A stretch of DNA of 64,000 bases from Bdellovibrionales bacterium (GCA_964230555.1 CAXRIX010000078.1:10-64009); one strand, 5' to 3'; shown: positions 7,031-11,453, counted from the stretch's first letter. The notes: a model not told the origin generated them from the sequence alone. Program-made: numbers and translations.

Positions 7031-8020
7031 ATGAAAAAAATTTTAGTGACGGGTGGCGCCGGCTACATCGGCAGTCATACTTGCAAAGCTCTGCATAGGA
7101 AAGGCTTTCTTCCGGTCAGCTACGATAATTTATGCCGCGGCCATCGATCGGCGGTCCGCTGGGGCCCCCTGATTGAGGGCGACCTCCACGATCACGCCAA
7201 ACTGACCGAAGTTTTGAAAACTGAGAATATCGATGCGGTCCTGCATTTTGCCGCCTTCGCCTACATTCAAGAGTCTGTGGAAAATCCACAGATGTACTTT
7301 CAAAACAATGTTGAAGGCAGCATTCTGTTGTTTGAGGCCATGGCTCAAGCTGGGGTAAAAAAAATAATTTTTTCAAGCACTTGCGCCACCTACGGGGAGT
7401 CAAAACAGGCCCTCATCGACGAAAACCATCCGCAAAACCCCATCAACCCTTATGGCCTCAGCAAACTGATGGTGGAAACAATTCTTCAGAAATATAAGGA
7501 ACTGGGTGTTATGGATTTTTGTGCTCTTCGATATTTTAACGGAGCCGGTGCTGACCCCGAATTGGAAATCGGCGAAACCCACAACCCCGAACCCCACCTT
7601 ATCCCCAGTCTGATTCAAAAAGTTTTAGACGGCGAACCTCTGACCATCAATGGCAAGAGCTATCCAACGGCCGACGGCACTTGCGTTCGAGACTTTATTC
7701 ATGTTGCAGACCTGGCCAACGCCCACGTTTTAGCCCTGGAGGCTTTATTGGAGCAACGCCATCAACGGAGTTTCTATAATTTGGGGAGCCAACAAGGCTA
7801 TTCTCTTCTAGAAATTGCGGCTGCCATTGGCGAAAGCCTTGGAACTTCTCCCACTCTGGAATTTCACCCACCGCGCTCAGGCGACCCCGCCCGCCTGGTG
7901 GGTGATGCGCAACGTTTCAAGGAAGAATTCCACTGGCAACCAAAACACTCTGATTTAAACACCATGATCGACACCGCCGTCCGTTGGCAAAAAAGACTTA
8001 GAGAAGAGACAGGGCTATGA
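7031..8020 (+). CDS. galE: UDP-glucose 4-epimerase
   Basis: 329 aa with the Rossmann motif VTGGAGYIGSH, an SDR YxxxK (YGLSKLMVE), and GalE-like length and C-terminus. GGAG lies upstream of the ATG. Confidence 0.85.
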   Translation: MKKILVTGGAGYIGSHTCKALHRKGFLPVSYDNLCRGHRSAVRWGPLIEGDLHDHAKLTEVLKTENIDAVLHFAAFAYIQESVENPQMYFQNNVEGSILLFEAMAQAGVKKIIFSSTCATYGESKQALIDENHPQNPINPYGLSKLMVETILQKYKELGVMDFCALRYFNGAGADPELEIGETHNPEPHLIPSLIQKVLDGEPLTINGKSYPTADGTCVRDFIHVADLANAHVLALEALLEQRHQRSFYNLGSQQGYSLLEIAAAIGESLGTSPTLEFHPPRSGDPARLVGDAQRFKEEFHWQPKHSDLNTMIDTAVRWQKRLREETGL

Positions 8021-8596
8021 TTGTTTCCAGTCTTCAAAAAGAGTGCGGATGCTCCCCTTGGGGGGAGGACTGGGCCATAAAGGAATCCATTGAGCCAAGA
8101 AATGGCCTTTGGTTTTTTTTCTAAAAAATACTTCGTGATCCCACTCAAGCTCTCCGAAGGCGAGAAGCTCATCGATATATTGGTGATGTCCCGCCGAATA
8201 AGCGAGACGAGCAGCGACTTCATACTCAAAAATATTCGTACTCTCTAACTTCCCGGCTCCATACATTGGAATGAACCAGCCACCGAAAAGACATAAAAAA
8301 CCAATGGTGAGGCCGATACAAGCAAAGGTCAACTCTCGCAAACGACGAGGCTTAGCGCCTTGTTCTTGCAGCATCTCGCAAATGCGTTGTCGATGATGAA
8401 GCTCTTCGTCGCGAATCTTTTTAATTTCCTTTTTCTCAATCGCACTGGTCACAAACAAGGATTTATAATGACCCGTATAAGCGTAAGCTGCGGCCAGCTC
8501 ACCAGCGTGAGCATTTTGCAGCACTCGCACAAACTGGCTCTGCGCCTCAGTTTGAGACAGTTTTGGAAAATGAGTCAACTGGCTGGGCTTAAACAT
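8015..8596 (-). CDS. Ferritin-like di-iron carboxylate family protein with a central hydrophobic segment
   Basis: 193 aa with an E...ExxH pattern twice (GELAAAYAY, DEELHH, YEVAARL, ELEWDHE) and a hydrophobic stretch CIGLTIGFLCLFGGWFIPMY. Specific function unknown. Confidence 0.5.
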   Translation of the reverse strand: MFKPSQLTHFPKLSQTEAQSQFVRVLQNAHAGELAAAYAYTGHYKSLFVTSAIEKKEIKKIRDEELHHRQRICEMLQEQGAKPRRLRELTFACIGLTIGFLCLFGGWFIPMYGAGKLESTNIFEYEVAARLAYSAGHHQYIDELLAFGELEWDHEVFFRKKTKGHFLAQWIPLWPSPPPKGSIRTLFEDWKQS

Positions 8597-8792: not shown

Positions 8793-8819
8793 TTAAGCGA
8801 TCTCAGCAACTGACCGAAC
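8793..8819 (+). promoter_or_regulatory. Sigma-28 (FliA)-like promoter: TTAAG-N16-CCGAAC, with the -10 element 7 nt before ATG 8827
   Basis: TTAAG at 8793..8797 and CCGAAC at 8814..8819. The geometry matches that upstream of both fibre genes. There is no Shine-Dalgarno sequence between it and the ATG. Confidence 0.4.
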
Positions 8820-8826
8820 AATTTTT

Positions 8827-10599
8827 ATGTCTACTTTAAAAGTTTTTCTCACCACTGTTGTATTCGCTAGTTTTCAACTTTTTACTTTTCAAGCTCATGC
8901 CTTTGAAGCCTGGTGGCAATGCTCCAGTCGAATCGGCGGAGACTGGACTTTCGGCCGCGCCCCTTATTCCTGCCTAGTCGATCATATGCAAACCCAATCG
9001 ACGGTTAAGAATCAATATGGGCCCATCCTTTTTGAGGACGCACGATCTCGAAACACCGAGCGTGGACGCTACATGAACGAACTGAACGCTGTTGCTAAAG
9101 AGATGGCGCGATTTTATTTACAAAAAAGAAAGCCGCAAGCCAGTGAAGCTGAAATTCAAGCTTTTACAAAAGGTCTTTTGACACTTATGCACCAAGAAAC
9201 TGTGTGGTCCCATTTTCGTGTCGGCACCGACAATCGCGTGCGCTACATGCGTGGAGACAGTGGCCACGGTCACGGACTGATGCAAGTCGATGATCGCTCG
9301 CACCAGTCGGCTCTGTTGAGTGGCAAAGGCGTCGACCTGGCCCACAATATGGTTTACGGGTTGGATATTTTTTACGATGCTTGGCAACGGGCTCCGTCGC
9401 AAAGCTGTGTCAGTAGCTCGTCCAACTATACGGCGCGAACTCGCTCGGCATGGGCGGCTTACAATGGTGGGCCCGCACGCATCTGTCGATGGGCCAATCC
9501 GTCGAGCCCCTTTGCTCACCATGACGAACAGTTTTTAAGTAAATTGCGCAACCAGACCTTTAAAAGTTGGATCAGTTCAGAGACTCACAAAACTGATCTT
9601 AATATTTCTTGTCTGGTTGACGGCTCACGCCCCTGCGCCAACACCGGATCTGGCCCTGTTGTGCCGTCGGAGAATGAGGCTTATCAAATTGGCGATCTTT
9701 TCTGTCGATGGGGACAGTCGCTTTACTGTGTTGAGAGATTGAACGACCTTAAGTGCTTGGAGCTGGCTGACAACAGATCCTATCCCGTGCGTGGATCTCT
9801 TGACGAAGACCAAGTCGGCAACCGCCCTGTGGTGATCGCCGATCGTAATCAGCTTTGTGGTGAAAACGTGCAGGGACTTTTTGAAGTAAGCCAGCAGGTG
9901 GAACTTTTAAAAAATATCAACGTTCGCAAAACACCCGGTGGAGAGCTTTTAACAACCGCCAGCAGCGGCTTGCAGACGCGAGTTCTTGACTTTGCGGTGA
10001 CAAGCTCTTCGGATCAAAAGCGCTATTACAAAATTAACAGTGACGGCACTGAAGGCTACGTCTACGCCGGTGACAAACAAAGCTTTTTGGAGTGGGTCAC
10101 CGATGTCGAGGAACCGGTTGAACCAGAATCTTTGATTGCGCGCGTGGGAGACGACATTGAAGTGGTTGCTCCCTTTGGAATCAATTTACGAACATCACCC
10201 GGTGGCCGACTGCTTGTGCGTGTTCCTAATAGCGAGACTGTAGAGGTTGTTGATCGGATCGTCCAAGGCAGTAAAAACTATCTTTACTACAAAGTGCAGT
10301 ACCAAAACAGCGTTGGCTACATTTACTCGGGCTACCTTGATGATATGGAAACGGTTCCGCAATGGACTGTTGTCGTTAAAAGTTCCAACTTTTTGGCTCT
10401 TAATAGCAGCGTGCCATTCCGCTTTTTAAAGGCCTGCCCCAGCGACAGTTGTGATTTCACCTCGTCGGCTCTTCGCAGCGGCAGTGAACTTGATCAAGTG
10501 GAAGTTCTTGCAAGCCAAGGCCCTTGGGTGCGTGTTGCTAACACTGACAAGACCAAACAAGGCTGGATTCTGCTGTCTGACCTTCAGGAACAAAACTAG
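8827..10599 (+). CDS. Secreted goose-type (GH23) lysozyme / lytic transglycosylase with C-terminal SH3b-like repeats
   Basis: Signal peptide ending AHA-F. Catalytic-region signature HQETVWSHF...GDSGHGHGLMQVDDRSH...AWAAYNGGP, which matches g-type lysozyme GDxGxGxGLMQVDxRxH. The C-terminal half has three SH3b-like segments (NVRKTPGGELL..., NLRTSPGGRLLVRV...YYKVQYQNSVGYIYSGYL, WVRVANTDKTKQGWILLSDL). Confidence 0.75.
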   Translation: MSTLKVFLTTVVFASFQLFTFQAHAFEAWWQCSSRIGGDWTFGRAPYSCLVDHMQTQSTVKNQYGPILFEDARSRNTERGRYMNELNAVAKEMARFYLQKRKPQASEAEIQAFTKGLLTLMHQETVWSHFRVGTDNRVRYMRGDSGHGHGLMQVDDRSHQSALLSGKGVDLAHNMVYGLDIFYDAWQRAPSQSCVSSSSNYTARTRSAWAAYNGGPARICRWANPSSPFAHHDEQFLSKLRNQTFKSWISSETHKTDLNISCLVDGSRPCANTGSGPVVPSENEAYQIGDLFCRWGQSLYCVERLNDLKCLELADNRSYPVRGSLDEDQVGNRPVVIADRNQLCGENVQGLFEVSQQVELLKNINVRKTPGGELLTTASSGLQTRVLDFAVTSSSDQKRYYKINSDGTEGYVYAGDKQSFLEWVTDVEEPVEPESLIARVGDDIEVVAPFGINLRTSPGGRLLVRVPNSETVEVVDRIVQGSKNYLYYKVQYQNSVGYIYSGYLDDMETVPQWTVVVKSSNFLALNSSVPFRFLKACPSDSCDFTSSALRSGSELDQVEVLASQGPWVRVANTDKTKQGWILLSDLQEQN

Positions 10600-10608
10600 G
10601 GAGTTGTC

Positions 10609-11442
10609 TTGAACCGTAAGATTTTTGGATCAACATTTGTCATTCTTTTGATAGGTCTTTGGTTTTTTTCTGATCGCGTTTCAGAAAATCAAAACCAAGG
10701 ACACTCTGATCAAAGGGTCCTTCGGCGGGTTGCAAACACAAAACCAAAAACGGCCAAAAAAACCAAGCCAACTCCTCAAGCAACAGCGTCGACTTCAGCC
10801 CCCACGCAAGCACCCGCAGCCCCCACGCAAGCACCCGCAGCCTCAATGCCGCAGTCTGCAGTGAAGGCTGAGGATCGCCTGCAGCAACTTGAAGACTGCT
10901 ACCAGACAGAGGGACAGTGCGGTTTTGATCTATCAGATCCAAAGGCAGAGCACTTTGCCATTGGTCAGGAAATCAAAAAAGAACTTTTAAAAATTCAGTT
11001 TCAAGCTCAGAAATACAAACTGCAATCCCCTGAGTTTGCGGAGATCGCCCGTCACCACTTAAAAAACCCGGATGGACACGTAAAAGCGGCCGCCTTGCAC
11101 CTGATGTCGACCCAAGAGATCAGCGCAGAGAACCTGGATAGCATCCTCAACGAAATTATTCTGTATCACGACGCTCACCTTATCCAACATGCGATGCTAG
11201 AGCTGACCCGTTATTTGGGACAAGCTTACGATCAAAAAATACATCATGGATTAAGTCGCGCCTTGGCGCAGGGAGCTCCTTTTGTAAGCCTGGAGATCGC
11301 TAAAGGACTTCAACCTTTTATAAACTCTGCTAGTTTCGGTATTTATAGCCATCTGATGACTCAATTGGGCGCCGGATCAAAAACGCGGAGCCTTTTAAAA
11401 GTCAGCTTAGAGGAATTTGAGAGAAGACAATCGGCCGGTTAA
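10609..11442 (+). CDS. Membrane-anchored helical-repeat (HEAT-like) protein with a Pro/Ala/Thr/Gln-rich linker; function unknown
   Basis: 277 aa with a TTG start 9 nt after the lysozyme stop and GGAG 5 nt upstream. It has an N-terminal TM segment FGSTFVILLIGLWFF, a low-complexity linker, then about 190 aa of helical repeats (HLKNPDGHVKAAALHLM, HDAHLIQHAMLELTRYLG). Confidence 0.6.
   Translation: MNRKIFGSTFVILLIGLWFFSDRVSENQNQGHSDQRVLRRVANTKPKTAKKTKPTPQATASTSAPTQAPAAPTQAPAASMPQSAVKAEDRLQQLEDCYQTEGQCGFDLSDPKAEHFAIGQEIKKELLKIQFQAQKYKLQSPEFAEIARHHLKNPDGHVKAAALHLMSTQEISAENLDSILNEIILYHDAHLIQHAMLELTRYLGQAYDQKIHHGLSRALAQGAPFVSLEIAKGLQPFINSASFGIYSHLMTQLGAGSKTRSLLKVSLEEFERRQSAG
10798..10839 (+). repeat. 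Perfect 2 x 21-bp tandem repeat (gcccccacgcaagcacccgca) encoding APTQAPA twice
   Basis: Read directly: 10798..10818 equals 10819..10839. Confidence 0.95.
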
Positions 11443-11453
11443 TAGACGGCCGA
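11431..11453. terminator. GC hairpin between convergent genes (possible terminator)
   Basis: tcggccg-gttaataga-cggccga has a 7-bp stem and overlaps the stop codon of 10609..11442, 7 nt from the nusG stop. It has no strong U-tract. Confidence 0.35.

Follow-up and report, generated by a model that had tools for sequence, protein, structure and literature searches.

A goose-type-lysozyme-like enzyme and its strictly linked, HEAT-like partner: a possible muramidase/immunity module of Bdellovibrionota and Proteobacteria

Introduction

Bacteria that prey on or compete with others face a central problem: how to stay safe from the enzymes with which they degrade cell walls. To our knowledge, few solutions to it are understood: the ankyrin protein Bd3460, deacetylation of the prey wall in the case of the enzyme DslA, and the immunity proteins that accompany type VI secretion systems (T6SS). 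Here we analyze a pair of genes in a 64,000-nucleotide (nt) stretch of DNA from a Bdellovibrionales bacterium (GCA_964230555.1, CAXRIX010000078.1:10-64009). This whole stretch is called the window below, and positions are counted from its first nucleotide. An initial annotation of the region had proposed a predatory muramidase followed by a self-protection protein. The two open reading frames (ORFs), with lengths in amino acids (aa), are:

8827-10599, plus strand: ORF1, goose-type (g-type) lysozyme-like enzyme, ATG start, 590 aa
10609-11442, plus strand: ORF2, predicted membrane-tethered periplasmic HEAT/ARM-like partner, TTG start, 277 aa

In Bdellovibrio bacteriovorus, the DD-endopeptidases Bd3459 and Bd0816 are accompanied by the ankyrin self-protection protein Bd3460, which shields the producing cell by binding its hydrolase (Lambert et al. 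2015, PMC4686830). As at the Bd3459/Bd3460 locus, the gene of a peptidoglycan hydrolase with a predicted Sec signal lies here beside that of a predicted periplasmic α-helical repeat protein, again in the Bdellovibrio group. Unlike Bd3459, a PBP4-like endopeptidase, ORF1 is most likely a GH23 muramidase. Unlike Bd3460, ORF2 is HEAT/ARM-like with no Ank match and would be anchored in the membrane through a long spacer; it is a putative inhibitor of its enzyme. The ORF1/ORF2 module also differs from Bd3459/Bd3460 in that it is not limited to predators.

A second point of comparison is Tse3-Tsi3 (Tge1-Tgi1) of Pseudomonas aeruginosa, a type VI muramidase effector with a periplasmic immunity protein (Wang et al. 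2013, PMC3792639). Tse3 has been compared with the structures of SLT domains and goose-type lysozymes, and Tsi3 occludes its substrate groove (PMC3792639). Delivery of Tse3, which lacks a signal peptide, is through the T6SS, whereas ORF1 would leave the cytoplasm by Sec; Tsi3 is a small β-sandwich, whereas ORF2 is modeled as an all-α solenoid, and the two sequences are unrelated.

Gram-negative bacteria also possess periplasmic or membrane-bound lysozyme inhibitors, namely PliG, Ivy and MliC/PliC, of which PliG is specific for g-type enzymes. These are small, β-rich proteins. They counter host lysozymes, and their genes, unlike that of ORF2, do not neighbor a lysozyme gene. A different precedent comes from Bacillus spores, in which SleB and YpeB are encoded bicistronically: SleB is a lytic enzyme of GH23 type that also has a domain for wall binding, YpeB is a partner anchored in the membrane by its N-terminus, and the two are mutually dependent. 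YpeB keeps SleB silent until a trigger arrives. YpeB consists of PepSY domains, SleB acts as a lytic transglycosylase in spores of Gram-positive bacteria, and neither protein is known to be homologous to ORF1 or ORF2.

Animal goose-type lysozymes (goose egg-white lysozyme, GEWL, PDB entry 153l; GH23) are the sole significant structural-database relatives of the ORF1 catalytic domain. The catalytic Glu of GEWL has its counterpart in ORF1, as do its GD-x-G-x-G-x-GLMQVD-x-RSH hairpin and its AYN-G-P motif. About 90 residues can be aligned. ORF1 further has SH3b repeats, a linker rich in Cys and, toward its N-terminus, a conserved segment that is likewise Cys-rich (WxCxxRxGGxWxFGRAPxxC).

Results

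Strict linkage of enzyme and partner

The linkage of the two genes is the strongest result of our analysis. Of the 41 closest genomes, 13 have enzyme and partner together, whereas the remaining 28 have neither gene (Fisher p = 6e-11). The copy numbers of enzyme and partner agree, except in one genome (G021), whose second partner gene emerged on inspection of the locus, and at all 16 places inspected the enzyme gene lies directly upstream of a gene for a partner of 230-280 aa. We then used the profile of the enzyme to scan 185,579 species genomes and kept 80 loci. A gene of the ORF2 family is present at 74 of these enzyme-seeded loci, and the other six end at a contig edge first. Loci seeded with the partner have the enzyme immediately upstream in 7 of 7 cases. 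In an even sample of the phylum, comprising 401 genomes, none of the 33 genomes with the catalytic domain is without the partner: 32 carry both genes, and the apparent exception (G151) has the pair on inspection. The partner is found as an orphan in six genomes of this sample, all from one genus. The gaps in 86 adjacent pairs mostly range from -22 to +36 nt; the flanks differ between clades, and no third gene is conserved at the pair.

The two genes are therefore adjacent and co-inherited, and the presumed toxin never occurs alone, as expected of toxin/immunity pairs. The asymmetry between an enzyme that is never alone and a partner that sometimes is alone is itself a prediction of such a relationship. 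A partner gene without an adjacent wall hydrolase gene, which the initial annotation had regarded as incompatible with self-protection, is almost never seen; it occurs in the six orphan genomes.

The orphan partner (L116:5810-6655, with equivalents at L117-L121) is divergent and retains the anchor, the spacer and the Cys pair described below for ORF2; no lysozyme gene is nearby, and the orphan gene sits 3' of pyrD and of a gene for an FlgT-like lipoprotein. Other arrangements of the pair were also observed. In an uncultured Microbulbifer (L067:1071-2530), two tandem genes of the partner family lie upstream of the enzyme gene and none lies downstream. A single partner gene lies upstream of the enzyme gene at L040, and the partner gene at L090 is divergent, on the opposite strand.

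Distribution of the module

Within the Bdellovibrionota, the module occurs in the classes Bdellovibrionia and Bacteriovoracia. It is also found in Roseateles/Pelomonas, Paucibacter, Paucimonas lemoignei, Methylibium and Microbulbifer, with further carriers in Thalassotalea, Paraglaciecola, Reinekea, Pleionea, Aliikangiella and Moraxellaceae. In the tree of the catalytic domain, few transfers between classes suffice to account for this distribution. The pair had been put forward as a predatory speciality; its equal conservation in non-predatory Beta- and Gammaproteobacteria does not support that view.

The module is present in 5 of the 13 genomes of the window's genus and in about 8% of the phylum sample, is absent from 28 of 40 close relatives, and occurs in two copies in some genomes. 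Because only five of the 13 genomes in the genus carry the pair, we consider the module to be accessory.

Co-diversification and a predicted complex

Tree distances of the catalytic domain and of the partner domain are correlated (Mantel r = 0.65, p = 0.001). Pairs that are paralogous within one genome lie far apart in both trees, and orthologous pairs from different genomes lie near each other in both. The rate of evolution is about 1.7-fold higher for the partner than for the catalytic domain.

We modeled the two proteins as a single chain by translating positions 8827-11439 with the TAG stop codon of ORF1 read as Gln, which yields 871 residues. The alignment used for this model (A7) consisted of the query and 26 natural in-frame read-through fusions taken from other genomes (27 paired rows), plus 19 rows with the enzyme only. 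The AlphaFold2 model of the fused chain has a mean predicted local distance difference test (pLDDT) score of 83.5 and a predicted template modeling (pTM) score of 0.82, and is disordered only at residues 1-27 and 592-670. With the 194-residue solenoid domain of ORF2 left undocked, we calculated a ceiling for pTM of approximately 0.69 (d0 near 10 Å). Because the pTM of the model exceeds this ceiling, the solenoid appears to be placed confidently against the enzyme, which implies that it docks on the enzyme in the fused-chain model. An interaction between the two proteins, anticipated in the initial annotation, is thus predicted by the model.

It could be argued that the two genes are chance neighbors with unrelated functions and that their fusion produced the predicted complex artificially, given that the complex was modeled as one chain. 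However, the 80-residue disordered linker in the model imposes no geometry, paralogous pairs co-diversify, and adjacency is kept across two phyla in approximately 80 independent contexts in which the enzyme is never alone. We therefore give this explanation hardly any weight.

Analysis of the fused model with DSSP also revealed isolated β-bridges at residues 36, 266, 506 and 851.

ORF1 as a candidate goose-type muramidase

The following features were assigned to ORF1:

8827-8901, plus strand: Sec signal peptide, aa 1-25, predicted to be cleaved after AHA
8902-9606, plus strand: catalytic domain, aa 26-260, GH23 goose-type-lysozyme-like by profile comparison with the PDB
9196-9198, plus strand: Glu124, at the position of the catalytic Glu
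9256-9258, plus strand: Asp144, aligned with GEWL Asp86
9289-9291, plus strand: Asp155, aligned with GEWL Asp97
9607-9888, plus strand: Cys-rich linker domain, aa ~261-354, cysteines conserved in alignments A3 and A7
9889-10596, plus strand: three tandem SH3b (SH3_3) wall-binding repeats, aa ~355-590, identified with Pfam

The N-terminus of ORF1 reads MSTLKVFLTTVVFASFQLFTFQAHA followed by FEAWW, with predicted cleavage in the context ...FQAHA/FEAWW. All long homologues of ORF1 have a type I signal peptide, which ends just ahead of a conserved TPDYWxC motif. In the fused model, the signal-peptide region has pLDDT values below 55.

Several lines of evidence relate the catalytic domain to g-type lysozymes: (i) The motifs QETVWS, GDSGHGHGLMQVDDRSH and AYNGGP are all present in ORF1. 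(ii) A search of the PDB with the single ORF1 sequence returned only g-type lysozymes, with marginal scores (E 0.14-0.6). (iii) When the search was performed with a profile of the catalytic domain alone built from 64 sequences (A10), g-type lysozymes took all six top places (E 5e-5 to 2e-3), and lytic transglycosylases were absent from the PDB matches of this profile. (iv) HMMER aligns GDSGHGHGLMQVDDRSH, which contains the motif GD..GLMQVD.RSH, with residues 84-101 of goose lysozyme. (v) Glu124, which lies in QET in ORF1 and in QES in most homologues, is invariant in alignments of 25, 46 and 64 rows; it aligns with Glu73 of GEWL and sits at the end of a helix spanning residues 107-125 in the fused model. 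(vi) Asp144, in the GD motif, is invariant, and Asp155, in the QVD motif, is at least 90% conserved. The PDB matches of ORF1 include chain 4g9s, a g-type lysozyme from salmon; this entry is a complex with PliG.

The Pfam SLT family gives sub-threshold matches in 15 of 25 members of the enzyme family. Comparison with the genome's own SLT domains by hhalign yields a weak match (probability 18%, P 0.0014) in which the Glu-Ser and AYNGGP motifs are paired. Because the genome already holds approximately nine canonical SLT proteins, ORF1 would be an extra, atypical enzyme. In the GH23 mechanism, the aspartates of the hairpin mark a hydrolase as opposed to a lytic transglycosylase, as discussed for DslA (PMC7511926). 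Because both hairpin aspartates are retained, ORF1 would be a hydrolase rather than a lytic transglycosylase. Most probably, it is a genuine muramidase and belongs to the goose-type branch of GH23.

ORF1 has ten conserved cysteines, which suggests that it resides in an oxidizing compartment. The conserved cysteines of the linker are C262, C270, C293, C301, C310 and C344. The linker is modeled as small β/α elements with pLDDT values of ~81-96, and no family could be assigned to it.

In the C-terminal region, three stretches are recognized as SH3_3 by Pfam (58.1 bits, the gathering threshold being 27; E 9.9e-16; best at aa 451-505), and the same family is matched in 22 of 25 ORF1 homologues. A Foldseek search of the PDB and BFVD with the 871-residue fused model returned only SH3b-containing proteins among its top 50 matches, including phage endolysins and YrvJ. 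Because these matches are tandem-SH3b proteins, they confirm the wall-binding module of ORF1. For the catalytic domain, the order of secondary structure elements in the fused model is compatible with a lysozyme fold. The description of a secreted 590-aa g-type lysozyme with three SH3b repeats, given before these searches, agrees with the signal peptide, the profile matches and the SH3_3 assignment.

The catalytic hairpin, RGDSGHGHGLMQVDDRSH... (residues 141-170), is the most conserved segment of the enzyme and has the lowest pLDDT (60-68) of the folded part of the model (m7d58a9e711e6). Searches of NCBIfam and PHROG with the single sequences of ORF1 and ORF2 yielded nothing significant. We also considered ORF1 as a T6SS glycoside-hydrolase effector (Tge) and rejected this assignment, given that ORF1 and all long homologues have Sec signals and no conserved neighbors.

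ORF2 as a predicted tethered helical-repeat protein

In ORF2 we distinguish an N-terminal hydrophobic segment, a spacer and a helical domain:

10621-10689, plus strand: N-terminal hydrophobic segment (putative signal anchor), aa ~5-27, from the sequence; helix at residues 8-21 in the model
10690-10857, plus strand: Pro/Ala/Thr/Gln/Lys spacer, aa 28-83, predicted to be disordered (pLDDT ~46-52)
10796-10842, plus strand: 21-bp tandem repeat in the spacer, 2.2 copies, 100% match
10858-11439, plus strand: helical-repeat (HEAT/ARM-like) solenoid, aa 84-277, in the AlphaFold2 model
10897-10920, plus strand: Cys97...Cys104 loop (CYQTEGQC), followed by a DPK motif, from the family alignment

The hydrophobic N-terminal segment is found in all aligned members of the ORF2 family, and in ORF2 it is preceded by Arg3 and Lys4, on the side expected to be cytoplasmic. 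Cys97 and Cys104 are the only invariant columns across 69 diverse family members and are followed by DP[RK]. A C-x(2-9)-C motif is present in 87 of 89 family ORFs at the loci, and one of the two exceptions is masked. Because an invariant Cys pair implies a disulfide, we infer that Cys97 and Cys104 are bonded and that ORF2 is periplasmic. Arg3/Lys4 ahead of the hydrophobic segment, together with the Cys pair, would make ORF2 a protein with a type II anchor and its solenoid in the periplasm.

The AlphaFold2 model of ORF2 was built with 17 homologues. Its solenoid consists of ten helices (residues 82-276), with pLDDT values above 90 over nearly all of residues 91-277, mostly 91-98; the low-confidence stretch covers residues ~22-80. 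The best Foldseek matches in the PDB are alphaRep, HEAT and ARM proteins, with template modeling (TM) scores of 0.57-0.63 on the target and non-significant E values (≥0.058). A profile search of the PDB likewise places alphaRep, AP-3/4 and CAND on top, all non-significant (E ≥0.068). ORF2 has no Pfam match, HEAT_2 is matched sub-threshold in 3 of 17 family members (best E 0.012), and no match to an Ank family was found at E up to 1 in ORF2 and 16 homologues. By its modeled fold, the solenoid is probably HEAT/ARM-like, as the initial annotation had it, although its sequence does not place it in the HEAT family. The anchor, the Pro/Ala/Thr/Gln spacer with its perfect 21-bp repeat and the helical domain of about 190 aa, all noted at the outset, are borne out by the model and the sequence. 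The further suggestion that the spacer holds the domain at a fixed distance from the membrane is contradicted by comparison with relatives: the closest of these, which is 97% identical (P0001), is without one copy of the 7-aa repeat, and the start of the solenoid varies from about residue 47 to residue 108 across the family. The spacer length is therefore not fixed.

A search of 1.84 billion representative proteins returned 711 matches to the ORF2 family at E ≤1e-3, including 335 at E ≤1e-30. The best 150 of the 711 family clusters are nearly all 240-290 aa long, with a C-terminal solenoid and no added domain. No enzymatic motif was found in ORF2, and solenoids of its kind are generic folds for binding proteins. 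The plug of the lysozyme inhibitor Ivy is a short disulfide-bounded loop. The invariant Cys loop of ORF2 is reminiscent of it and might likewise serve as an active-site plug.

Two further identities for ORF2 were tried and rejected. Membership in PliG, Ivy or MliC finds no Pfam match at E up to 1 in ORF2 or its homologues, and ORF2 is all-α. An ankyrin identity of the Bd3460 type finds no Ank match, and the fold matches are to HEAT/ARM proteins.

The arrangement of a signal-peptide-bearing SH3b lysozyme followed by a type II membrane protein whose periplasmic portion is helical superficially resembles a phage lysis cassette, and the fold matches of the SH3b region are phage endolysins. The module could accordingly be a cassette remnant consisting of a secreted endolysin and an inner-membrane spanin-like protein. 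This origin seems to us most improbable. ORF1 has no PHROG match, and ORF2 has only low-complexity, non-significant ones; phage genes are absent from the vicinity. Instead of a coiled coil, the partner has a globular solenoid of 190 aa, and it has no spanin match; and ORF2 contains no embedded plus-strand ORF of at least 60 aa, although outer-membrane spanins can be shorter. In addition, the module is chromosomal and occurs in many unrelated contexts.

Variants of the enzyme

Catalytic-only variants of the enzyme, approximately 250-310 aa long (247-312 aa), have no SH3b repeats, and their genes still overlap the partner gene. Since the partner persists beside enzymes that have no SH3b, it is the catalytic domain with which it is associated. 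Three such variants (L018:6321-7064, L019:6473-7411 and L020:7219-7974) are all encoded on the minus strand. The catalytic-only variants have lipoprotein-type signal peptides (LVTLAC/G, SITMAC/G and ILSTAC/G), and their partners are without the C-terminal tail (E/D-F/Y-x-x-x-Q-S/T-A-G) that is conserved beside long enzymes.

Larger homologues were also noted. The enzyme homologue of a Reinekea sp. (L055:2896-5955) has 1019 aa, and its cluster (P0109) also carries Pfam PF13529; those of Roseateles/Pelomonas (L088-L115) have about 680-690 aa. An apparent, very divergent relative of the enzyme is a 789-aa protein in genome G264 (L122:6070-9940) with the motifs GGKYWTFGRA and YHESRLSH and one SH3_3-like stretch. 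One gene of 304 aa lies between it and a truncated (202 aa) partner-like gene.

Gene boundaries, genomic context and candidate promoter

The remaining features of the locus are:

10600-10608, plus strand: intergenic spacer, 9 nt, carrying a GGAG Shine-Dalgarno sequence for ORF2 at 10600-10603
8794-8820, plus strand: candidate sigma-28-like promoter motif TAAG-N16-CCGAACA, found by pattern search

The ORF1 stop codon is the TAG at 10597-10599. The TTG start codon of ORF2 is at 10609, and the GGAG ends 5 nt before it. The same start is used in public gene calls for relatives with 97% and 74% identity. All details of the first description of ORF2, namely its position 9 nt downstream, its own GGAG, its TTG start and its length of 277 aa, are thus confirmed by the sequence. 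ORF2 is in the reading frame of ORF1, from which it is separated by the TAG and three codons (10597-10611). An in-frame arrangement is found in 31 of the 86 adjacent pairs, which is the chance rate (p 0.65). Because in-frame pairs occur only at this rate, stop-codon read-through is not indicated, and we rejected a read-through fusion as a biological product.

The TAAG-N16-CCGAACA motif matches the window three times, compared with 0.45 matches expected. It is kept in the closest relative (G008) and not clearly so in G002 or G004. The sigma-28-like promoter proposed earlier is therefore present as a motif, but its conservation extends only to the nearest relative. The -10-like element ends 6 nt 5' of the ORF1 ATG, and no Shine-Dalgarno sequence is found ahead of ORF1 (8794-8829). 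Because of this spacing and the missing ribosome-binding sequence, the ORF1 transcript may be leaderless or nearly so.

The pair is flanked by COQ7-like and nusG genes. It shares the segment 6794-11459 with a galE-like epimerase gene (7031-8020) and the COQ7-like ferritin-fold gene (8015-8596, minus strand), and this segment lies within the normally contiguous secE-nusG / rplK-rplA cluster. The nearest relative, G008, has the pair in the same cluster, again together with a galE-like and a COQ7-like gene. The adjacency to nusG is also seen in G008, and not in other carriers.

Discussion

A possible hydrolase/immunity pair

We propose that ORF2 has an inhibitory, immunity-conferring role and that the two proteins form a Sec-dependent hydrolase/immunity pair, a proposal that we judge to have an even chance of being correct. 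In such a scheme, ORF1 would be exported by Sec and would fold in the periplasm with several disulfides, and its three SH3b repeats would direct it to peptidoglycan, presumably that of foreign bacteria. ORF2 would be translated from the ORF1 message and anchored in the inner membrane by its N-terminus, so that its disulfide-stabilized solenoid is displayed in the periplasm on a flexible spacer. There the solenoid would capture the catalytic domain of its own enzyme one-to-one, and captured ORF1 would spare the wall of the producer until it is released or exported. We favor this reading because an enzyme that is never found alone, a partner that sometimes is and that evolves faster, an accessory, multi-copy spread and targeting by SH3b are all typical of such pairs, of which Bd3459/Bd3460 and Tse3/Tsi3 are known examples.

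Several points weigh against it. A tethered, tight inhibitor would trap a secreted enzyme unless there is a release step, for which we found no candidate, and the long enzyme may not exit the cell. The short variants with predicted lipoprotein signals would probably remain in the envelope, which fits a regulated resident enzyme equally well. With respect to the model, pTM is an indirect read-out of docking, and the solenoid may cover either the active-site cleft or another face of the enzyme; the Foldseek search with the fused model gave no lysozyme fold for the catalytic domain, SH3b matches having dominated the list. Finally, a literature search found no expression or biochemical data for any member of the families.

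The need for a release step and the short variants, which are probably envelope-bound, favor an arrangement in which ORF2 does not inhibit at all and instead serves as an anchor, stabilizer, localizer or activator that keeps the muramidase at the inner membrane for remodeling of the cell's own wall. SleB-YpeB of Bacillus spores and the adaptor-controlled hydrolases of Gram-negative bacteria provide models for such a role, and the linkage, coupling, co-diversification and predicted complex fit it just as well. Other observations are less easily reconciled with it: (i) The module is patchy and accessory (5/13 genomes of the genus, ~8% of the phylum sample). (ii) Some genomes carry two copies. 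(iii) The ~9 canonical SLT enzymes are already present in the genome. (iv) Tandem SH3b repeats are typical of lysins that attack foreign walls. (v) Orphan partners without orphan enzymes are hard to explain for an activator. (vi) The partner evolves faster than the enzyme. On balance, we regard a non-inhibitory role as less likely than an inhibitory one, and as its main rival.

Novelty and implications

We found no published description of either family in the literature, and both are absent from Pfam. That a hydrolase can be paired with a cognate protective partner is already known. What is new is the combination of a bacterial g-type lysozyme, a HEAT-like partner predicted to be tethered, and export apparently by Sec only, spread over predators and non-predators. 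Under the hydrolase/immunity reading, and with slightly less than even confidence, we suggest that ORF2 may found an unnamed family (at least 711 clusters) of tethered HEAT-like inhibitors of unnamed bacterial g-type lysozymes. Together the two families would constitute a Sec-dependent, secretion-system-independent muramidase/immunity module that is used and horizontally exchanged by predatory Bdellovibrionota and by bacteriolytic or polymer-degrading Proteobacteria.

The families comprise hundreds of clusters, including members in the culturable Bdellovibrio sp. HCB337, Paucimonas lemoignei DSM 7445, Roseateles saccharophilus, Microbulbifer and Thalassotalea, and because they occur in culturable strains the hypothesis is directly testable. 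If ORF2 were an anchor or activator instead, the pair would represent a new way of controlling a muramidase in the Gram-negative envelope. If the immunity hypothesis is true, the module would add a further solution to the problem of self-protection, one that combines a genuine bacterial g-type lysozyme, a fold new among inhibitors of GH23 enzymes, and delivery through Sec alone.

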